NCBI GenBank assembly: GCA_964580065.1
Contig: CAZOJE010000002.1
Span: forward strand, 66,978 to 130,977
DNA: 64,000 nucleotides
Direction of reading: 5' to 3'
Source: an uncultured Candidatus Saccharibacteria bacterium
Lineage (GTDB): Bacteria > Patescibacteriota > UBA1384 > DTJR01
Below, piece after piece: positions 4,774-59,441 of the stretch. A program made the translations under genes and the position numbers. Numbering within the stretch: the first letter of the stretch is position 1; the number at the start of each line of letters is the position of its first letter. The notes under the pieces were generated by a model. It made no database searches. It saw nothing but the letters and a program-made list of their open reading frames with translations, and was not told the origin of the DNA.

Positions 4774-5946
4774 TTATTTTTTCTTTTTCTTAGACTTGGC
4801 CTTGCCTGTCTCTTTAGTCTCCTCGTTTGATTTTTCTTCTGGCAAAGATTCTTCCGAAGATTCTTGTTTCTCTTCTTCGATTAATTCGGCTGATTTCTCG
4901 GTCTTATTGTCTTTGACAATATCGAGAGTCCAGCCAGTTAGTTTACTGGCTAAGCGGACATTCTGGCCGCCCCGACCAATAGCTAAAGAAAGCTGATCAT
5001 CAGGAACCCAAATTTTAGCAGAATTTTCTTTGTTATTGAATTTTATCTTGTCGATTTTAGCCGGAGAAAGAGCATTTTTGACTAACTGCTCCATATCATC
5101 ATCATAAAGAATGATATCGATTTTTTCATTTGGCAATTCAGTCAAGATGGCTTGAACTCTTGTACCGCGTTGTCCAACCACCGACCCAACCGCATCCAAG
5201 CTTTCGTCGTTCGATCGAACGGCTAGCTTCGTTCGTGAACCGGCCTCGCGGGCAATGCTAACAATTTCGATAGAACCGGATTCAATTTCCGGAACTTCTT
5301 GGGCAAATAAACCCTTAATGAACTCTGTTCGCGATCGTGAAACTAGAATACGTGGTCCTTTGTTAGTTTCTTCGACCTCGCTAACATAAACTTTCAAGCG
5401 CTGACCAGTATAATATCTTTCACCTTGAATTTGGTCGTTGGAAAGCATGATGCCGTTAATTTTGCCTAAATCGACGATAACATTTGGCCCTTCAAGCCGT
5501 TGAATGACACCGTTGACAATTTTATTTTCTCTACCCTTAAATTCTTCATAAAGCATTTCGCGTTCGGCTTCGCGAAGCTTTTGAATAATAACTTGTTTGG
5601 CGGTTTGAGCGGCAACGCGGCCAAAATCAGATTGTTCTTCTAGTTCCTCAAGAATCTCGTCGCCGGCTTGAATATCTTTCTTCTTTTTTCGGGCCTCAGT
5701 AATCGAAACTTGTGCTTCAGGGTTGGCGATTTCCTCGTCTTCTCCCATTACAGTGAAAACGCGCCAGACTTTCATTGAGTTAGAAGCGGGGTCTAATTTA
5801 ATTTTAATCGCTTGACCCGGTCGACCATAATCTTTGCGGTAAGCCGCAGCAAGGGCGGACTCGACAGCACTAAAAACAATTTCTTCGGGTAAATTTTTTT
5901 CGTCAGAGAGTTGTTTTATGACGGATAAAAACTCTGATATTTGCAT
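4774..5946 (-). CDS. nusA: Transcription termination/antitermination factor NusA with a lysine-rich C-terminal tail
   Basis: NusA N-terminal domain (FLSVIKQLSDEKNLPEEIVFSAVESAL), S1 and KH regions. The protein ends in KAKSKKKKK. Confidence 0.9.
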   Translation of the reverse strand: MQISEFLSVIKQLSDEKNLPEEIVFSAVESALAAAYRKDYGRPGQAIKIKLDPASNSMKVWRVFTVMGEDEEIANPEAQVSITEARKKKKDIQAGDEILEELEEQSDFGRVAAQTAKQVIIQKLREAEREMLYEEFKGRENKIVNGVIQRLEGPNVIVDLGKINGIMLSNDQIQGERYYTGQRLKVYVSEVEETNKGPRILVSRSRTEFIKGLFAQEVPEIESGSIEIVSIAREAGSRTKLAVRSNDESLDAVGSVVGQRGTRVQAILTELPNEKIDIILYDDDMEQLVKNALSPAKIDKIKFNNKENSAKIWVPDDQLSLAIGRGGQNVRLASKLTGWTLDIVKDNKTEKSAELIEEEKQESSEESLPEEKSNEETKETGKAKSKKKKK

Positions 5947-19540: not shown

Positions 19541-19614
19541 TGGTGGACCCACCGAGAATCGAACTCGGAATTCAGCAATGCGAATGCCGTGTTATACCAT
19601 TTAACTATGGGCCC
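19541..19614 (-). tRNA. tRNA-Ala (anticodon CGC), CCA encoded
   Basis: Folded by hand: acceptor GGGCCCA/TGGGTCC with the G3:U70 Ala identity pair, anticodon stem CGGCA/TGCTG, loop TTCGCAT, T-arm CCGAG-TTCGATT-CTCGG. Confidence 0.8.
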
Positions 19615-20382: not shown

Positions 20383-20469
20383 GGGCAAGTGGCGGAACTG
20401 GTATACGCGTAGGTCTCAAAAACCTATGGCCGCAAGGCCTTGTGGGTTCGATTCCCACCTTGCCCACCA
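20383..20469 (+). tRNA. tRNA-Leu (anticodon CAA), long variable arm, CCA encoded
   Basis: Acceptor GGGCAAG/CTTGCCC, anticodon stem TAGGT/ACCTA with loop CTCAAAA, variable arm TGGCCGCAAGGCCT, T-arm GTGGG-TTCGATT-CCCAC. Confidence 0.8.
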
Positions 20470-26123: not shown

Positions 26124-26200
26124 GGGCCTGTAGCTCAGTTGGCTAGAGCGCATGCATGGCATGCATGAGGTCAGGGGTTCGAGCCCCCTCAGGTCCACCA
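26124..26200 (+). tRNA. tRNA-Ala (anticodon GGC), CCA encoded
   Basis: GGGCCTGTAGCTCAGTTGG...anticodon loop ATGGCAT...GGTTCGAGCCCC...CAGGTCCACCA. G3:U70 present. Confidence 0.85.
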
Positions 26201-33151: not shown

Positions 33152-33541
33152 TTACTTCACCTTTTTAGATTCGGCTGGTTTACTTTCTTTTTGACTGTCT
33201 TTGGATTTTTTCTCAACTCTATTGAGAACTACTTGGCACATTCTAGTACCATCACCATGCCTTTGAAAAAGTTTTACTGTTGAGACTGAAGCGAATTGCC
33301 CCTTGTTATCAAAAGCTTTCTTGACTGCTCCACCATACAAATTCGCCTTTAAATATCTCATTAATAAAAGATCATCTTTGGCTGTGTTTAATCTACCAAC
33401 AACCCTTTCGGTCTCTTGTTTAAGCATTCTCGCTTTTGTTTCGGTCGTTAAAACTTTTTCGTACAACAACAAAGAAGAAACCAAACCTCGGCCCAGTCTA
33501 TTTCTATTCTGAAATTTTCTTGAAAGCTTTATCTTCTTCAT
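33152..33541 (-). CDS. rplQ: 50S ribosomal protein L17
   Basis: KLSRKFQNRNRLGRGLVSSLLLYEKVLTTETKAR pattern; it sits directly after rpoA. Confidence 0.85.
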   Translation of the reverse strand: MKKIKLSRKFQNRNRLGRGLVSSLLLYEKVLTTETKARMLKQETERVVGRLNTAKDDLLLMRYLKANLYGGAVKKAFDNKGQFASVSTVKLFQRHGDGTRMCQVVLNRVEKKSKDSQKESKPAESKKVK

Positions 33542-34302
33542 TATTTTTTAGCTTTTGTTACTTTTGTAGTTTTTGCTTTTTTCTTTGGCTTTTCAATCAC
33601 GATTTGATCGCAAGCATCCGAAATGACACCAAGATGCTCGGACATTATCGTAGCCGCTTGTCTTAAAGATTCGCTTGGCGTAATTGAACCATCGGTCGTA
33701 ATTTCTAAGACCAGTCTGTTGTAGTTAGTTTGACCACCAACCCTAGCGTTTTCCACTGTATATTTAACTTTTTTCACGGGCGTGTAAATACTATCAAGCA
33801 TGATGGTTCCGATGGTTGGTTTTTCATCGGCTCTTTTTTCTACCGGTACATAACCGCGACCACGATCAATTTCTACAACCATTTCAAGTTTGCCGCCTTT
33901 TTCAAGAGTGCAAAGGTAATGATCGTTATCGACAACCTCAACCTCGGAAGTCTTCTTGAAATCCGCGGTAGTGACTTTTTTGGGACCCTTAACCAAAAGC
34001 TCTATCTTAGCCGGTTCATCGGAATTAAGTTTGAATCTAGCTACTTTTAGGTTTAAGATCAGGTCGACAATATCTTCTTTCATCCCTTTCAAAACTGAAT
34101 ATTCATGATCGGCGCCTTCGATTCTAACCGATTTAGGTGCGCTTCCTTCGAGAGATGCTAATAAAATTCTCCTTAAAGTATTACCAACGGTGATACCGTA
34201 GCCAGGAGACAGCGGCTCGATAACAAAGGTTCCAGTTTTACCATCTTCGCTAAACGAAGATTTCACTTCCAGCAAATTCAGATCAGGTAGAATATAACTC
34301 AT
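33541..34302 (-). CDS. rpoA: DNA-directed RNA polymerase alpha subunit, N-terminal (dimerisation/assembly) domain only; no alpha-CTD
   Basis: The alpha-NTD is conserved (GYGITVGNTLRRILL...RGRGYVP). The protein ends about 20 aa after the NTD with a K-rich tail. rplQ starts immediately downstream. Confidence 0.85.
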   Translation of the reverse strand: MSYILPDLNLLEVKSSFSEDGKTGTFVIEPLSPGYGITVGNTLRRILLASLEGSAPKSVRIEGADHEYSVLKGMKEDIVDLILNLKVARFKLNSDEPAKIELLVKGPKKVTTADFKKTSEVEVVDNDHYLCTLEKGGKLEMVVEIDRGRGYVPVEKRADEKPTIGTIMLDSIYTPVKKVKYTVENARVGGQTNYNRLVLEITTDGSITPSESLRQAATIMSEHLGVISDACDQIVIEKPKKKAKTTKVTKAKK

Positions 34303-34312
34303 TTTTTCTCCT

Positions 34313-34915
34313 TTATCTCGAATAAAATTCGATGACAAACTGCTCGTTCACTAAATCGGAAATGTCCGGTTTAGTCGGCAGACTTAATATTGTTATTTTT
34401 GTCGGCTCTTTTTCATTTTTAACCCAAGCAGGCAATTCTGTGTGCTTTATTTTTTCCACATTTACTTCGCTACAAAATTCAATAACATCGTTGGGGGAGA
34501 TTAAAAATCCCGGGGATTTAGTTTTTCTGTTATTTACTTTGACTTTACCGTGTGTGACCGCTTGGCGGGCGTGGTCTCTTGACTGAACCCAGCCGCACTT
34601 ATAGACAACATTATCCAAACGACGCTCCAAAATCTGTAAAAGAATCTCTCCTGAACCAGTTTTGTTTTTTCGTGCTAAGGAATAATAATTTGAAAGCTGT
34701 TTTTCACTGATACCATAAATCGCGCGCAATTTCTGCTTTTCATTTAGCTGGACCGAATAGTCACTGCCTCTTTTCATCCTTGCTCTTGCGCCTAAATGGC
34801 CGGGAGCATATGAACGTTTGGCAAAAGGACATTTATCCCCTTCACATTTTTCCCCTTTGAGAAAGAGTTTTAAGCCCGATCTTCGACAGATTCTACAATT
34901 TGAATTTTTTAACAT
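34313..34915 (-). CDS. rpsD: 30S ribosomal protein S4 (zinc-ribbon type)
   Basis: CRICRRSGLKLFLKGEKCEGDKC and the S4 domain. Confidence 0.9.
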   Translation of the reverse strand: MLKNSNCRICRRSGLKLFLKGEKCEGDKCPFAKRSYAPGHLGARARMKRGSDYSVQLNEKQKLRAIYGISEKQLSNYYSLARKNKTGSGEILLQILERRLDNVVYKCGWVQSRDHARQAVTHGKVKVNNRKTKSPGFLISPNDVIEFCSEVNVEKIKHTELPAWVKNEKEPTKITILSLPTKPDISDLVNEQFVIEFYSR

Positions 34916-34916
34916 T

Positions 34917-35306
34917 TTACACTCTTCTTGGTTTCTTAGCTCTACAGCCGTTATGGGCAATAGGCGTTATGTCTTTTAATCCATTTACTCTAAATCCGGC
35001 CGAACCGAAAGCTCTGACGGCTGAATCGCGGCCCGAGCTTACGCCAGAAACAAATATCGAAATTTCTTCAACCGCAGCATCATGCATTTTATCAATTAGA
35101 ATTTTAGCTGTTTGGCTTGAAGCATACGGCGTGGATTTTTTGCTTCCTTTGAAGCCGGCTAAGCCGGTCGATGTCCAAGCAAACACATTACCATTTTCAT
35201 CAGTTGCGGTAATTACCGTATTGTTGAACGAAGATTTTATATAAACCTTCGCACTTTTTACAATTTTTTTAACTTTTTTTGCTTTTGAAACTACTTTTTT
35301 TGCCAT
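34917..35306 (-). CDS. rpsK: 30S ribosomal protein S11
   Basis: Conserved S11 core (AWTSTGLAGFKGSKKSTPYA). Confidence 0.95.
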   Translation of the reverse strand: MAKKVVSKAKKVKKIVKSAKVYIKSSFNNTVITATDENGNVFAWTSTGLAGFKGSKKSTPYASSQTAKILIDKMHDAAVEEISIFVSGVSSGRDSAVRAFGSAGFRVNGLKDITPIAHNGCRAKKPRRV

Positions 35307-36102: not shown

Positions 36103-36852
36103 TTATTCATATTGTGTCAATATTTTTGCTCTGTTCTTCTCGACAAGCACAGTATGCTCAAAATGAGCCCCTAAAGTACTATCAACCGACTTCACATTCC
36201 AGCCATCTTTTGACGCTTTGACACGACCATTTCCCAAGGTTGCCATCGGCTCGATCGCCAGCATTACTTTTTCGGGGATTTTGGGACCGGTTCCCGCTTT
36301 ACCATCACACATTATTGACGGTTCTTGATGAACTTTTTCGCCAATTCCATGGCCTGAAAGTGACATCACTGGCGACAAACCATATTTTTTTAATGTTTCT
36401 CCGATTTTTTCTTCGATATCACCAAGGTAAACATCTGCTTTAACAATTTTGATCGCTTCATACAAGGCCTCTCTTGTACCAAAAAAAAGTCTTTTTGTAT
36501 CCTCTGACTTGAATTTTCCCACCACATAAGTCGCTGTTGCATCAGTATTCATACCTTTATAATTCGTGCCAACATCCAAGCTGACTATATCGCCTTCTTC
36601 CAAAACCCTACCTGAAGGTACACCATGGACAACCTCATCATTTACTGAAATACAAGTGGCATATTTATATCCGTCTATACCAAGAAAAGCTGGTAGAGAA
36701 TCACGCGAAGTGATGATTCTTGTCGCAATTTTATCCATTTCCAGCGTAGTTATGCCCGGGGCAACAATTTTTTTTATTTCGCGCAAAACAAACCCTGTAA
36801 TCTCTCCAGACTTGATAGCGTTTTTTATCTGATCTTTATTTAACTTTTTCAT
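36103..36852 (-). CDS. map: Methionine aminopeptidase type I
   Basis: Pita-bread fold with metal ligands in the expected positions; conserved ribosomal-cluster position after secY. Confidence 0.9.
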   Translation of the reverse strand: MKKLNKDQIKNAIKSGEITGFVLREIKKIVAPGITTLEMDKIATRIITSRDSLPAFLGIDGYKYATCISVNDEVVHGVPSGRVLEEGDIVSLDVGTNYKGMNTDATATYVVGKFKSEDTKRLFFGTREALYEAIKIVKADVYLGDIEEKIGETLKKYGLSPVMSLSGHGIGEKVHQEPSIMCDGKAGTGPKIPEKVMLAIEPMATLGNGRVKASKDGWNVKSVDSTLGAHFEHTVLVEKNRAKILTQYE

Positions 36853-38132
36853 TAAATAATGTCGTCGTACGATCGCATAGCAAGTTGTGCTTTAATCGTA
36901 CGTACGAGTTCAAGCGTTACCGAAACAATAATTAATATACCCGTTCCACCAATTGCCAAAGTTCTGATGCCGGTTGCGTTCTGTAAAACAAACGGGAAAA
37001 TAGCCACAATCGACAAGAAAAAAGCTCCCACAAAAGTAATTTTATAAATCACCGAACCCAAGTAGTCGGCTGTTTGGTTGCCTGGACGTAATCCCGGGAC
37101 AAAACCACCTTGCTTCTGTAAATTTTCAGCGATATTTTTTGGCTGAAAAATAATTGAAGTGTAAAAAAATGTAAAAAAGAAAACCAATAGGAAGAAAAGA
37201 AGCCCGTAATAAATATCATTGGAGAGGAAAACTGTGATTTTGGTCGATATGGCTTTGATATTTTCCGAGCTTGAAGTTTGTAAAAATTGAGCAATTACAT
37301 TTGGCATAACAAGTAAACTAGTGGCAAAGATAATTGGAATTACTCCAGCGGCATTTGCCTTAATCGGTAAATATGAACTAACCGAAGTTGTTGATCGCCC
37401 CGCCCGCACACGTCGAGCATAGCTCACCGGAATACGGCGTTCCGCTTCGTTCACCCAAACAATAAAAACAATCATCGCCACCATCGCCAAAATAATTTCT
37501 CCGCCAACAACTATTTTATTTTCTAGAATTTGACTTGTTGATGACACTTGGCCGGGAATACCGGCAACGATACCGACAGCAATCAAAAGCGACAAGCCAT
37601 TACCAATTCCACGTTCGGAAATTATCTCCCCCAACCACATAGCAAAAACCGAGCCGGCCGTGGCAACTACTAAAACGAGCGTTAATTCAGACATCGAAAG
37701 AGTGGAGATAACTTTCTGGCTTTGAAGCAAACGGACTAATCCATATGCTTCGGTTAATGCTAAAGGAATAGACAAGTACCTGATATATTGGTTGATTTTT
37801 TGTTTACCATACTCGCCTTCTTTTTGCATTTCTTCAAGCGCTGGAACAGCAACCGTCAGAAGCTGAATAATAATAGAAGCGGTGATGTAGGGGCCAACGC
37901 CAAGCATAGCAAGAGAAAATTTGCTCACCGACCCGCCGGAAAATAAGTCTAACAAGCCAAAGGCCTGATTATTTTGGAAAAAACTAGCCAAGCCGGAAGC
38001 ATCTACGCCCGGCAAAGGGATATGGGCCAAAACACGATAAACGACTATGAGAGCAAAAGTCAAAATTATCTTATTCCTTAAATCTTTTAAGGAAAAGATG
38101 CGCTTAATAATATTAATTATACGATCTATCAT
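36852..38132 (-). CDS. secY: Preprotein translocase subunit SecY
   Basis: Ten TM segments and SecY motifs; position between rplO and map. Confidence 0.95.
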
Positions 38133-51022: not shown

Positions 51023-54000
51023 CTATTTTTTCTTCTTGGTTGACTGCTTTTCGGCAATGTAACCGGTTCCAGCAGGAATCAGTTTACCAATAATTACGTT
51101 TTCTTTCAACCCTCTCAAGTTATCCACCGCTCCTCTAATGGCGGCAGAAATAAGCACGCTAGTCGTTTCTTGAAACGAAGCGGCTGAAAGGAAGCTTTCC
51201 GTCTTAAGAGCAACTCTGGTAATACCCATAATGACTGGTTCAACAATTGGCGCCTTCTTCTTGCTTTTTTCGAGGCCGCTTGTAAGAATTGCTAATTCTT
51301 TTCGGTCGATAATCTGGCCTGGAACAAGTTCGCTTTCTCCTTCATCAACGACGCGAAGTTTGCTCAACATTTGTTTGATAATCGTCTCCAAATGTTTATC
51401 GTTAATCGACTGGCCCTGTGAGGAGTAAATCGCCTTTGTTTCTTTGATGATATATTTCATAGTCTCTTGAGAACCGCGTAAGCGCAAGGCCTCGGAGAGA
51501 TTCAAGTGACCGTCAGCTAGAACAGTTCCTTTGGTTACTTTTTCGCCAGCTTTAATCAGCAAAGGCATACCCGTGATAATTGGATAAGCAATTTTGATCT
51601 TGTCTTTCGATCGTATAATTACTTTGCCCTTTTCAATGGAAACAACTCCATTGATGCTTGCTCGAACGGCTTTTTTGTCTTTGCAAATGGCTACGGCCTT
51701 CTTCGCTTTGATATTTTCCTTATCTTTAACCGCTATTTCGTAGCCCTCTGGCACCTCAATGGTTTCCGACATTGGCTCGTCCGAAATAATCTCAACCGTA
51801 ATCGAATCATCGTGTTTGTTGATTTGAGCGATACCGTCAATCTCGGTAATCGGGGCTTCATACTTAGGTCGACGGGCTTCAAAAAGCTCTTCAACCCTCG
51901 GCAAGCCAGAAGTAATGTCCTCTCCGGTAACACCGCCAAGATGGAATGTTTTCATGGTTAGCTGTGTACCAGGTTCACCAATAGCTTGAGCGGCAATAAC
52001 GCCAACCGCTACGCCAAGATTGACAATTTTGCCAGTTCCAAGATCACGACCGTAACATTTCTGGCAAATTCCATGATCCGTTTGACAATAAGCAACTGAT
52101 CGGACAAATACACTTTCCAGATCACTGCCTTCGATTTCTTGAGCTTTTTCTCGGGAGATTTCTTCACCCGCTTTGACAATAACCTTAGTCTTAATTTTAA
52201 TGTCATTTAATGAAACTCGGCCATCAATTCTTTCGGCAAAGCTTTCACCAAACTCGGCTGATTCAGCTCTTTTTATCTCTAGACCTGTTTTTGTACCGCA
52301 GTCTTCCTCGACAACAATAACATCTTGCGCCACGTCAACCAATCTTCTAGTGAGATATCCTGAATCAGACGTTCTCAAAGCCGTGTCCGATCGTCCCTTT
52401 CTCGAACCATGAGAAGAGATAAAGTACTCGAATACTGTCAGACCTTCGCGATAGTTTGAAACAATCGGTAATTCAATAATTTCTCCGGTTGGGTTAACCA
52501 CCAAACCTTTCATACCAGCCATTTGCGTCAACTGTGCAACCGAGCCCCTCGTCCCAGAGGTAACATACATGAACACCGGATTATCTTCGGAAAAGTCAGT
52601 AAGCATTTTTTTCTCAATTTCTTTTCTGGCGTTATTCCACAAATCAATAACGCGAACGCTCTTTTCTTCTTCTGTAATAAGTCCCCTCTTTAGTTGCATT
52701 TCAACTTCGTCAACTTTGCTTTCAGTTCCGTTGACAATTTCTTTTTTCTCCTTAGGAATGCTGATGTCGTCAATACCGATAGACACACCAGAAATTGTGG
52801 CATATTCAAAGCCAAGGGCCTTGATTCTGTCTAGCGATTGGGCACAAGCTTCACTGCCCAATTTCTTGAAGATTCTAACAACAATTGCCTTCATTTGTTT
52901 GGCATCAATCGTCTTGTTGATAAATCTAATTTCATCAGGCAAAACATTGTTGAACAAAATTCTTCCAACGCAAGTTTCCATTATCTTGTAATCAATTTTT
53001 TCGGCAATTTCGGTGTCGGTTTCTTTAATATCATCATCAACTTTGACTTTAATTCTGGTTTTTAAGCCAATGAATCCGGTTTGCCAAGCCATAATAGCTT
53101 CATTCTTGCTGGAATAAACTTTTATTTTCTTCTCATCGCCTTTTTCCATATCGGTGATATAGAAACAACCCAAGATCATATCAAACCTTGGAGTAACGAT
53201 CGGCTCTCCCGATGCAGGTTTAAGTAGATTTTTCGCCGAAAGCATAATATTTTCAGCTTCTTCTTCCGCCCTTTCGCTTAACGGAACATGAACGGCCATT
53301 TGGTCACCGTCAAAGTCAGCATTAAACGCCTGACAGACAAGCGGGTGAACCTGAATTGCCTTACCTTCAATCAAGATTGGTCTGAATGCTTGAATACCAA
53401 GTCGATGCAACGTTGGAGCACGATTAAGCATGACGTGTCGTTCAGAAGTGATTTCCTCCAATATGTCCCAAACGATCGGATCTTTTCGTTCGATCATTTT
53501 AGTAGCATTCTTCACGTTAAATACATGGCCGTCCTTAATAAGTCTGGCAATAACGAATGTCTTAAAGAGTTCAAGAGCCATGACTTTTGGTAAACCACAT
53601 TGGTCTAACTTCAAGTCGGGGCCGACAACGATAACGCTTCGTCCAGAGTAATCAACCCTTTTACCCAAAAGATTTTGGCGAAATCGACCTTGTTTTCCAC
53701 GTAGAATATCTGAAAGACTACGCAATTTTCTCTGGTTGCCGGTAACAGCAATGCGGCCTCTTCGCGCACTGTTATCAACCAACGCATCGACTGCTTCTTG
53801 AAGCATTCTTTTTTCGTTTCGGCAAATTACTTCAGGAGCTCCGGCAGTAATTAATTTCTTTAAGCGGTTATTTCTATTTAAAACCCTTCGATAAAGATCG
53901 TTTAAGTCTGAAGCGGCAAAGCGGCCACCGTCAAGCTGAACCATCGGGCGTAAATCAGGTGGTATGACCGGAATTCTGGTCATAACAAGCCACTCTGGTC

Positions 54001-54838
54001 TGATACCGGCTAATTGCATTTCTTTGAACATTTTTAATCGGCGAAGGAGTTTTTTGCGGTTAGCGACTACTTGAATATTCAATTTCTCGGTTAAAGACTT
54101 GACCTCGCTATCCATGTCAACACTTTTAAGAAGTTCCAAAATCGCTTCGGCGCCAATGCCAACTCGGGCAACTTGACCATACTTCATTGAGATTGAGTTG
54201 TATTCCGATTCGCTTAAAACCTTCTTATCGTGGATTGAATTAAGCTCTGATTTCGAATTCTTATAAGCCGCTTCAATTTTCTGTAAAGCAATTGGATTGT
54301 TTTTAACCTTATCGTCTCTTTTTGCTTCTTCAAATTCCTTTTGTAATTGCTCTAGCGCGGACTGTCGAAGATTTTCATTTACTTCTAAAACAACAAACGA
54401 AGCAAAATAGATAACAGATTCAACATCGGTGACACTCATATCTAAAATCGTTCCAACAATGCCGCCGGCTCCTCTTAAGAACCAAACGTGCGCTACAGGA
54501 ACAACTAGATCGATGTGCCCCATTCTTTCGCGGCGAACCGAGCTTCTGGTAACTTCGACGCCACATCGGTCACAGACAATTCCTTTGTAGCGAATTTTTT
54601 TGTATTTACCGCAATAACATTCCCAGTCTTTGATTGGTCCAAAAACACGCTCGTCAAACAAGCCATCTCTTTCTGGTTTTTGAGTTCGATAGTTAATTGT
54701 TTCCGGTTTCGTGATTTCTCCATATGACCATCGGAAAATGTCATCGGGGCTAGCGACACAAAGACGAATCATGTCAAACTCTTTCATGGCGGTGTCTTTT
54801 TGATGTGATTGGGTTGAATTCATGTTTCTATTCTCCAT
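51023..54838 (-). CDS. rpoC: DNA-directed RNA polymerase beta' subunit
   Basis: Zinc-binding [35 protein letters not shown] catalytic loop, bridge helix and trigger loop. Confidence 0.97.
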
Positions 54839-57800
54839 CCTTGCCTCCTTCAGTTTCTTCCTGATCGCTGATTATTTCTTCCTCCTGACCAGCAAAGATT
54901 TCTGTTAAATCTTTATCCTCGGCATCTTCTGTATCTTCCTCTTGATTGTCTGTTTCTTCACTGGAAAGCGACGTTTTTTCAACAATTTTTGACCTATCTG
55001 CTTCACCATAAATTTTTGCTTCGCCCGATTTAGAATCAATCATTTCTACTGAAAGACCCAAACTTTGAAGCTCTCGAACTAAGACACTGAACGAAGCCGG
55101 CACTGATGGTTTCTCGATAACTTCGCCTCTGATAATAGACTCGTAGGCCTTGGCGCGACCGATAACATCATCCGATTTGATTGTTAACATTTCTTGTAAA
55201 GTGTGAGCCGAGCCATAAGCTTCCAAAGCCCAAACTTCCATTTCACCAAACCTCTGGCCACCAAATTGCGCTTTTCCGCCAAGTGGCTGTTGCGTAACCA
55301 TCGAGTAAGGACCAACCGAACGAGCGTGCATCTTGTCGTCAACAAGGTGAGCCAGTTTAAGAATATAAACGGTTCCAACGGTAGCATCTGACTGGAACGG
55401 TTCGCCAGTTTTTCCGTCATAAAGTCGCATCTTACCGCTTTCGGGAAATCCAGCTTTATTAAGCTCTTCTTTTATTTTATCAACGCTAACGCCGTCAAAA
55501 ATTGGCGTAGCAACTTTATAACCAAGTTTGTCAGCCGCTAATCCAAGATGTGTTTCCAGAATCTGTCCGAGGTTCATTCTTGAAACAACGCCGAGCGGGT
55601 TAAGAATAATGTCTACCGGTGTGCCGTCCTCCATATAAGGCATATCTTCTTCGGGCAAAATTGCCGAAATGACACCTTTATTACCATGGCGTCCAGCTAA
55701 TTTGTCACCAACCGAGATTTTTCTAAGTTGAGCGACAGCCACTTCTACCATTTGGCTAACACCTTCCGGCAATTCGTCGTTGGCTTCTTTGGAGAAAACT
55801 TTAATTTCAATGACTTTTCCTTTTTCACCATGAGGCAAACGAAGCGAGGAGTCCTTAACATCTTTCGCTTTTTCGCCGAAGATTGCGCGAAGAAGTTTTT
55901 CCTCAACTGTCAGCTCGGTTTCACCTTTAGGAGTAATTTTACCTACCAAAATGTCGCCAGCTTCAATTTCGGCGCCAAGACGGATAACACCATTCTCGTC
56001 TAAATCCGCCAAAGCATCCTCACCAACATTAGGAATGTCGCGAGTAATCATTTCCGGACCAAGCTTTGTGTCTCGAACTTCAATAGAATATTTTTCAATG
56101 TGAATCGAACTTAGCATATCCTCCTTGACTAATTTTTCCGAAAGGATGATAGCATCTTCATAGTTGCAACCGCGATAGCTCATAAAAGCAACCTTTAAGT
56201 TGCGGCCAAGAGCCAATTCGCCGTTTTGAATAGCGGCGCCGTCGGCTAAAATATCGCCTTTTTTGACTTTAGTACCCGCGTCAACAATAATTTTTTGATT
56301 CATGCAGGTAGCTTGATTTGAGCGAACAAATTTCTCTAAACGATAGGCACGGTCTTTGCCGTCTTTGCCTTTAACGACGACTCGATTAGCCGAGGCCTCA
56401 ATTACTTCACCGTCTACTTCAGAAGTAATCACATGGCCGCTTGACATAGCCGCGCCACCCTCCATTCCAGTCCCAACAACAGGAGATTCCGGTCTAACCA
56501 AAGGGACAGCTTGTCTCTGCATATTCGAGCCCATATTCGCCCTAACCGCGTCATCATGTTCAATAAATGGAATCAAAGCGGTCGTAATTGAAGCAATTTG
56601 TTGCGGGGCAACGTCAACATACTGAATTTCACTAACCGCACCAATTGACGGATCACCGAATTTTCTAACCGGAACCTTCTTGCCGACAATGTAACCGTCT
56701 TTGTCCACCTTAGTTGACGAAGGTGCAATAACAGTTTTTTCTTCGTCCGACGCATCCAAATAAACAATCTTATTAGTAACTTTGGCTTTGCCATTTTTCT
56801 GCTCAACTACAAGATAGGGCGTTTCAATAAAGCCAAATTCGTTAACTTTTCCGTAAGAGGCCAGATAACCAACCAAACCAATATTTGGTCCTTCCGGTGT
56901 TTCAATCGGACAAATCCTACCATAGTGAGATTGGTGAACGTCCCTGACTTCAAAACCTGCTCTTTCGCGGGAAAGTCCGCCCGGTCCAGTCGCTGAAAGT
57001 GTTCTTTTGTGCTCCAATTCAGCTAAAGGATTGGTTTGGTTCATAAATTGTGACATTTGCGAAGAAGCAAAAAATTCTTGCAGAACCGCTACAATCGGTC
57101 GTGAATTAACTAATTGGGTCGGCGTCGCGTTTTCGGGCTCAACAATACTCATTCTATCTTTAATAATTCTTTCCATTCTCAAGAAACCGACTCTTAGTCT
57201 GGATTGAACTAATTCACCAACAGCACGAACACGTCGATTTTTAAGGTGATCGATATCATCTGGCAAACCAGTTGGATCATTATTGAGTCTGATAATTTCT
57301 TTAATGATTTCGACTAGGTCATCTAAACGTAAAATTCGCCCTTCGGCGTTATCCTTGACTTTCAGGCCGAGACGACGATTGATTTTATATCGTCCGACAT
57401 GGCCAAGATCATATCGTTTTGGATTGAAAAACAGGGCCTCGAGAAAAACTTTAGCCGCTTCCGGCGTTGCTAGATCCCCTGGTCTGATTCTTTTGTATAC
57501 TTCAACGAGAGCGCCTTGCTGATCTTTTGCCAGATCTTTTGCCAGAGTCTGGTCAATATATTTCAGATCGATATCATCGTCAACATCAGAGAAGATCTCT
57601 TTAATTTTTTCGTTAGAGGTAACCCCTAAAGCTTTCAAAAATGTGGTAACAGGGATTTTTCTCTTACGATCAACTTTGACGTTAATAACCCCTTTATTTG
57701 AAGTTTCAAATTCCAGCCAAGCACCACGATTCGGAATTAACTTAGCTCCAAAATATTTCTTCCCCGCAATTTCTTCAGCAATATAAATAACACCATACGA

Positions 57801-58217
57801 ACGAACGATCTGCGAGACAACGACTCTTTCGACACCGTTAATAATAAAAGTGCCTCGGTCGGTCATAACTGGAAAATCGCCCAAAAAGACTCTCGAAGCT
57901 TTTTGCTTTGAAGTGATTTTATTAGTTAGGATAACATCACACATTAAGGGCGCTTTATAAGTAAGGTTCTTGTGTTTGGCAGTTGTCTCATCGACTTTTG
58001 GCTGGCCCAACTCGTAATCGCCAAATTCCAACGACATAGCTTCGTTAGTAAAATCATCAACAGGACTTACTTCGTCGAGTAATTCCCTTATCCCCTCTTT
58101 AAATAACCAATTGTATGAGCTCTTTTGAATATCGATTAAATTTGGTAGTTCGACTTTAACGTGATCTTTAGAAAACTTGATTCTTTTTGCTTGATTTTGA
58201 CCAGACTGATTGGACAT
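54828..58217 (-). CDS. rpoB: DNA-directed RNA polymerase beta subunit
   Basis: Conserved beta regions and an acidic C-terminal tail. Confidence 0.97.
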   Translation of the reverse strand: MSNQSGQNQAKRIKFSKDHVKVELPNLIDIQKSSYNWLFKEGIRELLDEVSPVDDFTNEAMSLEFGDYELGQPKVDETTAKHKNLTYKAPLMCDVILTNKITSKQKASRVFLGDFPVMTDRGTFIINGVERVVVSQIVRSYGVIYIAEEIAGKKYFGAKLIPNRGAWLEFETSNKGVINVKVDRKRKIPVTTFLKALGVTSNEKIKEIFSDVDDDIDLKYIDQTLAKDLAKDQQGALVEVYKRIRPGDLATPEAAKVFLEALFFNPKRYDLGHVGRYKINRRLGLKVKDNAEGRILRLDDLVEIIKEIIRLNNDPTGLPDDIDHLKNRRVRAVGELVQSRLRVGFLRMERIIKDRMSIVEPENATPTQLVNSRPIVAVLQEFFASSQMSQFMNQTNPLAELEHKRTLSATGPGGLSRERAGFEVRDVHQSHYGRICPIETPEGPNIGLVGYLASYGKVNEFGFIETPYLVVEQKNGKAKVTNKIVYLDASDEEKTVIAPSSTKVDKDGYIVGKKVPVRKFGDPSIGAVSEIQYVDVAPQQIASITTALIPFIEHDDAVRANMGSNMQRQAVPLVRPESPVVGTGMEGGAAMSSGHVITSEVDGEVIEASANRVVVKGKDGKDRAYRLEKFVRSNQATCMNQKIIVDAGTKVKKGDILADGAAIQNGELALGRNLKVAFMSYRGCNYEDAIILSEKLVKEDMLSSIHIEKYSIEVRDTKLGPEMITRDIPNVGEDALADLDENGVIRLGAEIEAGDILVGKITPKGETELTVEEKLLRAIFGEKAKDVKDSSLRLPHGEKGKVIEIKVFSKEANDELPEGVSQMVEVAVAQLRKISVGDKLAGRHGNKGVISAILPEEDMPYMEDGTPVDIILNPLGVVSRMNLGQILETHLGLAADKLGYKVATPIFDGVSVDKIKEELNKAGFPESGKMRLYDGKTGEPFQSDATVGTVYILKLAHLVDDKMHARSVGPYSMVTQQPLGGKAQFGGQRFGEMEVWALEAYGSAHTLQEMLTIKSDDVIGRAKAYESIIRGEVIEKPSVPASFSVLVRELQSLGLSVEMIDSKSGEAKIYGEADRSKIVEKTSLSSEETDNQEEDTEDAEDKDLTEIFAGQEEEIISDQEETEGGKDGE

Positions 58218-59104: not shown

Positions 59105-59441
59105 TTGCCTAACTGCTCGGTAAGCTGGGTTCTGTTTTGGTAACTATCTATCTAAGCGTCAGGGCCTTTATGATATATCGAGCATCCTAGACATAAAGGT
59201 CCACCCGACTTGCACCAGAAGGAGTTTTGCACTCGCGAAATCTCTCGAATCCGCGATTGTGAGCTCTTACCTCAACTCTTTTCACCCTTGCGACCCGTCC
59301 GAAAACGGGTTTCGCGGTATAGTTTCTGTGCCACTATCCCTGGGGTCACCCCCGTCCTGATTTATCAGGATATCCTGCTCGATGGTGCCCAGACTTTCCT
59401 CCTCGGGAAAACCGAGGCAGTTACCTCGAACAGTTAGGCAA
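59105..59441 (-). ncRNA. rnpB: RNase P RNA (bacterial type A), about 337 nt
   Basis: The minus strand contains GAGGAAAGTCTGGGCACC (P4 consensus GAGGAAAGUCCGGGCUCC), AGGGTGAAAAGAGTTGAGGTAAGAGCTCAC (AGGGUGAAA..GGUAAGAGC.CACC) and a 3' ACAGAACCCAGCTTACC that pairs with a 5' UUGCCUAACUGUUCG P1 stem. Confidence 0.75.

Follow-up and report, generated by a model that had tools for sequence, protein, structure and literature searches.

The C-terminal domain (CTD) of the bacterial RNA polymerase alpha subunit has two canonical roles, binding of the minor groove at UP elements through R265, N268, G296 and K298, and docking of class-I activators. Engineered truncations that remove it, alpha(1-235) of E. 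coli and RpoA-del of B. subtilis, support core assembly and basal transcription without UP-element stimulation or class-I activation. The homologous dimerisation and assembly platforms of archaea (Rpo3, or subunit D) and eukaryotes (Rpb3 and AC40) have no alpha-CTD. Within bacteria the domain has been called 'ubiquitously present across all Bacteria' (PMC12531629). Alpha subunits that lack it are documented in the insect endosymbionts Hodgkinia and Tremblaya by Rangel-Chavez et al. 2021, where the work on E. coli alpha(1-235) is also summarised (PMC8321222). One sentence of the same paper, given without data, extends the loss to Parcubacteria and also to microalgal (Euglena) chloroplasts. Since the main text of the source cited there for Parcubacteria, Nelson & Stegen 2015 (PMC4508563), nowhere uses the word 'polymerase', the Parcubacteria statement is that of Rangel-Chavez et al. 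only.

Here we describe the rpoA gene found in a 64,000 nucleotide stretch of contig CAZOJE010000002.1 (assembly GCA_964580065.1), referred to below as the window, which derives from a member of the candidate phyla radiation (CPR, or Patescibacteria). Its product has an intact assembly domain, no CTD, and a conserved basic C-terminal tail that is predicted to be disordered.

An alpha subunit that ends after its assembly domain

33541-34302, minus strand: rpoA coding sequence, RNA polymerase alpha without C-terminal domain; 253 amino acids (aa) plus stop codon TAA; Pfam PF01000 and PF01193 only; TIGR02027, 262 bits
33604-34302, minus strand: alpha N-terminal domain (NTD; dimerisation and beta/beta' assembly), residues 1-233; delimited by alignments to Protein Data Bank (PDB) structures, AlphaFold2 (AF2) and invariant residues
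33544-33603, minus strand: lysine-rich C-terminal tail, predicted to be disordered, residues 234-253 (IVIEKPKKKAKTTKVTKAKK); 9 lysines in 20 residues; low predicted local distance difference test (pLDDT) values

The first-pass annotation of this DNA had described a well-conserved N-terminal domain followed by a lysine-rich tail of about 20 residues, and both descriptions hold. Pfam identified PF01000, the bacterial insert domain through which alpha touches beta and beta' (E=7.2e-31), over the full length of its profile (positions 1-119) and PF01193, the Rpb3/Rpb11-type dimerisation domain (E=2.9e-21; 75 bits, with a cutoff of 24). The protein passes the NCBIfam equivalog TIGR02027 with 262.4 bits, the cutoff being 227.8, although only positions 2-228 of the 298 in that profile are matched, and it scores 21 bits with the subunit D model NF001988, which has a cutoff of 153. 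Alignment to full-length RpoA, proposed in that annotation as a check, gave the same picture; PDB alpha subunits, among them 1bdf (the crystallised E. coli alpha-NTD), match residues ~16-242 only (E=1e-45 to 1e-57). The AF2 model, built with 80 homologues, has a mean pLDDT of 89, with values >90 across most of the NTD, whose final helix spans residues 209-233. R44/R45 and other residues of the assembly region are invariant, and approximately 20 NTD columns are invariant across 80 sequences. Since the window also contains rpoB and rpoC, we infer from these residues that an alpha dimer would assemble with beta and beta'.

The protein ends 20 residues beyond the final helix of the NTD. Pfam gave no match to PF03118, the alpha-CTD, within RpoA even at E<=1, and no C-terminal helix-hairpin-helix domain on a flexible linker was found; the linker and CTD are missing, as first noted. 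Two hidden Markov models (HMMs) were used for a wider search, a general one made from 89 CTDs of representative alpha subunits and a second one made from 17 Patescibacteria-type CTDs. No alpha-CTD was found in the six frames of the window with either model, the best values (E=0.28, inside rpsM, for the general HMM and E=0.37 for the Patescibacteria HMM) being noise. Among control loci from outside the Patescibacteria (Firmicutes, Bacteroidota and other phyla) the general HMM detected a CTD in all 77, and it detected none in nine Patescibacteria loci, in which the scan reached up to 10 kb to either side of rpoA. The control loci came from a scan of species-representative genomes with the clade alignment, in which the matches listed were mostly Firmicutes; three of these loci were from Patescibacteria, and none came from a closely related Berkelbacteria genome.

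Judged from the sequences compared, the absence of the CTD is a trait of the lineage and not of one assembly. An identical 253-aa RpoA is present on Logan-assembled contigs from run SRR9860463. The best 120 protein clusters, drawn from NCBI, JGI, ENA and Logan, show 52-99% identity, are all 231-287 aa in length, and contain PF01000 and PF01193 with no PF03118. Taxon names were available for a minority of the database entries, and the clusters that are named belong to Candidatus Berkelbacteria or to the 'Patescibacteria group'. A library of 50%-identity representatives yielded roughly two dozen additional clusters consisting of an NTD and a short basic tail.

The same survey of rpoA length, which had been suggested as a check, was extended with an alpha profile of non-Berkelbacteria Patescibacteria. 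Among its best 120 matches, 119 could be classified; the CTD was absent from 101 and present in 18. Named matches belonged to the 'Patescibacteria group', Candidatus Buchananbacteria and Candidatus Kerfeldbacteria, and a Candidatus Moraniibacteriota genome locus likewise lacks the CTD. Some Patescibacteria keep the domain, as seen in a contig-end fragment that precedes rplQ in GCA_020148085.1 and in a Candidatus Vogelbacteria fragment. Neighbor Joining trees of the NTD show CTD-bearing and CTD-less sequences interleaved, with approximately nine changes of state, although these trees are too crude to count losses. Two CTD-less, bacterial-type rpoA sequences (P0057 and P0283) are labelled 'Nanoarchaeota archaeon' and 'Thermoplasmata archaeon' at NCBI and probably come from Patescibacteria contigs that were binned with archaeal genomes by mistake. 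Three other alpha homologues (P0121, P0122 and P0138) are 526-664 aa long with two matched stretches, and with two CTDs in the case of P0138; their form suggests rpoA copies in tandem or fused, or else chimeras produced by assembly.

The immediate surroundings of the gene bear on its two ends.

34308-34311, minus strand: GGAG ribosome-binding site, 5 nucleotides (nt) 5' of the ATG at 34302; read from the sequence
33539-33543, minus strand: TAATG, the rpoA stop and rplQ start sharing one base; read from the sequence
33152-33541, minus strand: rplQ (ribosomal protein L17), with a lysine-rich tail of its own; Pfam PF01196, 25.3 bits, just below the 27-bit cutoff
34313-34960, minus strand: rpsD (S4), upstream neighbor in the conserved alpha operon; Pfam PF00163 and PF01479

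The true start of rpoA is almost certainly the ATG at 34302, because GGAG lies 5 nt upstream, because homologues begin with MSYILPDLN or M[DE]YILP, and because a separate gene call on the Logan contigs likewise yields a 253-aa rpoA. The open reading frame (ORF) of 33541-34338 reported earlier as rpoA does exist, but the gene begins within it and encodes 253 aa instead of 265. Similarly, rplQ had been placed at the next codon, which is correct to within one base; the rpoA stop TAA (33543-33541) and the rplQ ATG (33541-33539) overlap at their common base. Since rplQ occupies the DNA 3' of rpoA, no CTD is encoded directly downstream, in agreement with the earlier claim. A frameshift or sequencing error near 33.55-33.60 kb had been named as what might restore a CTD; none explains the truncation, and none there could restore the domain because L17 is encoded in that DNA.

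The window carries, on its minus strand, the end of the spc/alpha operons in the order secY, map, infA, rpmJ, rpsM, rpsK, rpsD, rpoA, rplQ, rplM and rpsI, so that rpoA stands in the rpsM-rpsK-rpsD-rpoA-rplQ position that is conserved for RpoA. The order rpsD-rpoA-rplQ-rplM-rpsI is kept in relatives, and a short rpoA followed by rplQ also occurs in relatives, in one case on a 929 kb contig (ERZ25039515:contig_29365; L082). An adenylate kinase gene (adk) usually lies between secY and map. In the window secY is directly followed by map (36103-38132, minus strand) with no adenylate kinase gene at that position, and on the 929 kb contig of the relative just mentioned adk is located elsewhere and the operon is broken up by unrelated genes. 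The window also encodes a bacterial class A RNase P RNA (59105-59437, minus strand; 167 bits) and three tRNA genes (19544-19614, minus strand; 20383-20466, plus strand; 26124-26197, plus strand); no rRNA or riboswitch was found in it at Rfam gathering scores.

Basic tails and AT-hooks at the C-terminus of alpha

The tail of the window RpoA contains 9 lysines in its 20 residues (45%), compared with a mean lysine content of 9.6% in the window, and is the joint most lysine-rich C-terminus among the 75 window genes. In the AF2 model the three C-terminal blocks of 10 residues have pLDDT values of 73, 56 and 44, the last two of these blocks being the tail. It thus has the features of a lysine-rich disordered tail, namely at least ~30% lysine, low complexity and predicted disorder. 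Such tails were present in 119 of 119 full-length homologues of the clade, with lengths of 13-58 aa (median 25), a median lysine content of 40% (minimum 24%) and a median net charge of +7, the charge being at least +4 in 89%. Overall they are 39% lysine, the remainder is mostly E, A, V, T, S and P, and arginine is nearly absent; no positional conservation was found among them. The linkers of CTD-bearing Patescibacteria relatives, by comparison, are a mixture of K and E with a median net charge of 0. A rank test of tail against linker charge gave p~6e-4, which is indicative only, as the samples are related. From these compositions the presence and the positive charge of the tail look selected, with its sequence drifting freely. 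The tetrapeptide KPKK was tried as a motif of the clade tails and was seen 23 times against 8.8 +/- 2.6 in shuffled tails, but this mild enrichment was set aside because the sequences are related.

A canonical AT-hook consists of RGRP with basic residues on either side and binds AT-rich DNA in the minor groove. The alpha-CTD likewise binds the AT-rich minor groove at UP elements. Proteins with AT-hooks include HMGA, the Myxococcus protein CarD and actinobacterial WhiB7, the last of which uses its AT-hook just upstream of the -35 element. In 27 of the 101 CTD-less alphas from other Patescibacteria lineages (matches P0278-P0396 of the wider profile search; for example, P0301, P0303, P0326 and P0349) the protein ends in K-[KR]-R-G-R-P-[KR]-K (KKRGRPKK), a canonical AT-hook. 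Shuffling each of the 101 tails gave an expectation of 0.01 for RGRP against the 27 observed, and RGRP was found in 0 of 396 NTDs. The AT-hook is preceded by a highly variable, glutamate-rich linker of 17-59 aa that is mostly net-negative, and its distance to the C-terminus is 3-14 residues. The carriers cluster in the tree, with NTD identity down to 51%. This arrangement of an NTD, a flexible linker and a small minor-groove binder mirrors that of NTD, linker and CTD, and it is mainly for this reason that we regard the tails as putative functional DNA tethers rather than debris. No AT-hook on a core subunit of RNA polymerase was found in the searched literature.

Other charged tails occur in the window. 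Only five of the 75 genes (RpoA, NusA, L17, L23 and L2) encode at least 7 lysines in the last 20 residues, and beta' (51023-54838) ends in TKKKK. L23 (44597-45013, minus strand) has a lysine-rich C-terminal extension of approximately 50 residues, and L17 (33152-33541, minus strand) also ends in a lysine-rich tail. The tail of L32 (28676-28900, plus strand) is only mildly basic. The suggested link between the alpha tail and basic tails on NusA, L23 and L32 can therefore be kept for the first two, with L17 and beta' added, and for L32 to a mild degree. NusA (4774-5946, minus strand) consists of an NTD, S1 and two KH domains, followed by an acidic stretch and a KAKSKKKKK end, and it lacks the acidic AR1/AR2 repeats. 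In E. coli NusA these repeats bind the alpha-CTD, AR2 being the alpha-CTD-binding element, and a NusA without them fits with a system in which a CTD is never used. Acidic tails were also seen. The beta subunit encoded by rpoB (54828-58217, minus strand) ends in a strongly acidic tail of approximately 55 residues (which includes EETDNQEEDTEDAEDKDL) past the last Pfam domain, at ~54831-55000, and this acidic tail beside the basic tails of alpha and beta' might reflect interaction or DNA mimicry. A bactofilin homologue (PF04519; 62390-62944, plus strand) has a very acidic C-terminal tail, with 11 D/E in the last 20 residues.

What the tail may do, and alternative explanations

The intact assembly domain, the lack of a CTD and the conserved basic tail are close to certain, and overall we consider it fairly probable that this is a genuine, natural alpha-NTD-only RpoA, shared by a whole lineage of Berkelbacteria-like CPR members, in which the basic tail serves as a minimal DNA tether. 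The intact NTD scaffold would allow the polymerase to assemble and to carry out basal sigma-directed transcription, as is established for E. coli alpha(1-235) in vitro. With the folded alpha-CTD and a normal linker absent, the established functions of UP-element stimulation and class-I activator docking would be impossible in the usual way, and it is reasonable to regard both as lost. The tail, which could extend up to ~70 Å, might reach DNA just upstream of the -35 element, adding sequence-independent affinity, in which case it would partly stand in for the DNA-binding role of the CTD and not for its activator-docking role. This reach and added affinity, proposed by analogy, form the least certain step, and we put it forward tentatively. 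The first-pass annotation had concluded that there are no UP-element or class-I contacts. For the canonical CTD functions this stands, but to exclude any upstream DNA contact would be unsafe, given that the tail is kept basic in 119 of 119 homologues and that AT-hooks occur in 27 of 101 alphas elsewhere.

Other lineages of Patescibacteria seem to have met this problem by way of a flexible acidic linker that carries a canonical AT-hook at its end. It is conceivable, if somewhat doubtful, that in much of the CPR minimal disordered tails that bind DNA, borne by the polymerase core, have taken the place of the folded alpha-CTD, with a lysine-rich tail in Berkelbacteria and an acidic linker plus AT-hook in several Parcubacteria-type lineages. 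Such tails would keep an AT-rich or non-specific ('UP-like') contact with upstream DNA and discard the activator-docking surface. If true, this would explain how these bacteria manage in the absence of a domain that neither E. coli nor B. subtilis can dispense with.

Several observations weigh against a tethering role for the window tail. The AT-hook core RGRP is absent from it and was found in 0 of the 119 clade tails, so that the inference of a DNA tether reaches the window tail by analogy only. A few CTD-less Patescibacteria alphas have purely acidic short tails, so a basic tail is not a requirement. Neither E. coli nor B. subtilis is viable when the alpha-CTD is missing (PMC4495994), from which it follows that something must compensate for its loss, and we cannot say that the tail is the compensator. 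Furthermore, lysine-rich C-termini are present on NusA, L23, L17 and beta' of the window as well, and alanine/lysine-rich extensions of ribosomal proteins are known in this radiation, such as the lysine/alanine-rich extension of uS19 in Parcubacteria (PMC9297842). For these last two reasons the lysine-rich tail of alpha may represent a general habit of nucleic-acid-associated proteins rather than a specific surrogate for the CTD.

An alternative that builds on the same observations is that the tail has no promoter role at all, lysine-rich extensions being general to nucleic-acid-associated proteins and the CTD having been lost because regulation is minimal. In variants of this explanation the tail would serve RNA or ribosome binding, transcription-translation coupling or solubility, or would be a by-product of A-rich mRNA before tightly packed start codons. 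The tails on the other window proteins (KKKK in the case of beta'), the uS19 extension and the acidic tails of some CTD-less alphas all favor it, as does the fact that the tail codons form an A-rich stretch ending at the overlapping rplQ start. However, C-termini this rich in lysine are confined to 5 of the 75 window genes, with RpoA joint first. The tails of the clade, at 13-58 aa (39-174 nt), far exceed a translation-initiation region, and they remain where rplQ lies 3-18 nt away instead of overlapping. In addition, other CTD-less lineages have a specific minor-groove motif, the AT-hook, in the equivalent place. We judge a tail without a promoter role to be rather unlikely.

A second alternative is that the CTD is detached, with a small gene of its own at another place in the genome and recruitment to the polymerase in trans. 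Stand-alone ORFs with PF03118 only do exist in metagenomes, and the search in this genome covered 64 kb of it. The separate CTD-like ORF that the first-pass annotation proposed to look for was found neither in the six frames of that window nor in the rpoA flanks, up to 10 kb, of nine Patescibacteria loci, a result that holds for the DNA so covered. A search with the Patescibacteria CTD profile recovered 23 short proteins, of which three loci were examined; none of these three (P0402, P0406 and P0418) comes from the Berkelbacteria clade. P0402 was rejected as a detached CTD, since it is a piece of a full-length rpoA cut off by the contig end. P0406 appeared to be a split rpoA with genes for a 241-aa NTD and a 63-aa CTD (L088:869-1823, plus strand), and was rejected because a run of Ns in the scaffold shifts the frame within the linker. 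The third, P0418, is a 78-aa gene with PF03118 only (L089:1204-1440, plus strand) that is found on a phage-like contig, where its neighbors are small ORFs, a DNA methyltransferase and a faint match to DUF4355, and it may be a phage-encoded CTD mimic. A detached CTD would, moreover, be without the covalent tether that defines CTD function. Taken together, these points make a CTD supplied in trans very improbable.

Finally, a sequencing or assembly error, frameshift or decaying pseudogene that truncates a normal rpoA has next to no probability, because all close relatives and other, independent assemblies share the architecture (the best 120 clusters from many samples and sources, and the identical protein on contigs of another assembly), rplQ follows directly with no CTD-like translation in any frame, conservation of the NTD is high (20 of its columns are invariant in 80 sequences), and no supporting sign was found, although the gap of Ns in the L088 scaffold indicates that such artefacts occur.

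Comparison with known systems

The CTD is absent across the whole lineage of the window RpoA and from most alphas recovered in the wider Patescibacteria search. Thus, a large share of bacterial diversity would transcribe without UP-element recognition and class-I activation as they are known. The basic tails and AT-hooks provide a concrete hypothesis on how little suffices for contact with upstream promoter DNA. For annotation, the short rpoA genes in these genomes should not be treated as truncated or partial.

Among described proteins, archaeal Rpo3 and eukaryotic Rpb3 and AC40 share the assembly platform, but the window RpoA is of bacterial type, as seen from its scores (TIGR02027, 262 bits; NF001988, 21 bits), the insert domain PF01000 and the rpsD-rpoA-rplQ operon. 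Lysine-rich disordered DNA-binding tails are known from the histone H1-like tails of bacterial nucleoid proteins. AT-hook proteins resemble 27 of the 101 other CTD-less Patescibacteria alphas in this feature, a minor-groove binder like the alpha-CTD, and differ from the window protein, whose tail has no RGRP core. A closer parallel in form is the archaeal RNA polymerase subunit Rpo13, in which deletion of a 20-aa lysine-rich C-terminal tail (residues 85-104) abolishes non-specific binding to double-stranded DNA (PMC3479171). Both tails are approximately 20 aa long, lysine-rich and disordered, and stand at the end of a polymerase subunit; however, they share no sequence homology, and DNA binding by the alpha tail is a proposal by analogy.

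The engineered truncation alpha(1-235) of E. coli is similar in extent, as the window protein ends 20 residues past the equivalent of E. coli residue ~237. The E. coli and B. subtilis truncations are not viable (PMC4495994), whereas an alpha of the window type is the only one in its lineage and has a basic tail, which is missing from the engineered versions. The alphas attributed to Parcubacteria, Hodgkinia, Tremblaya and the Euglena plastid are the nearest natural counterparts, having kept the NTD and lost the CTD in strongly reduced genomes with few regulators. That work (PMC8321222) describes neither Berkelbacteria nor the conserved lysine-rich tail nor AT-hook tails, and nothing was found in the searched literature on a CTD-less alpha in Berkelbacteria, a conserved lysine tail or AT-hooks on alpha. 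Alpha subunits without a CTD are therefore already known, and the part that may be new is the replacement of the domain by a tail.

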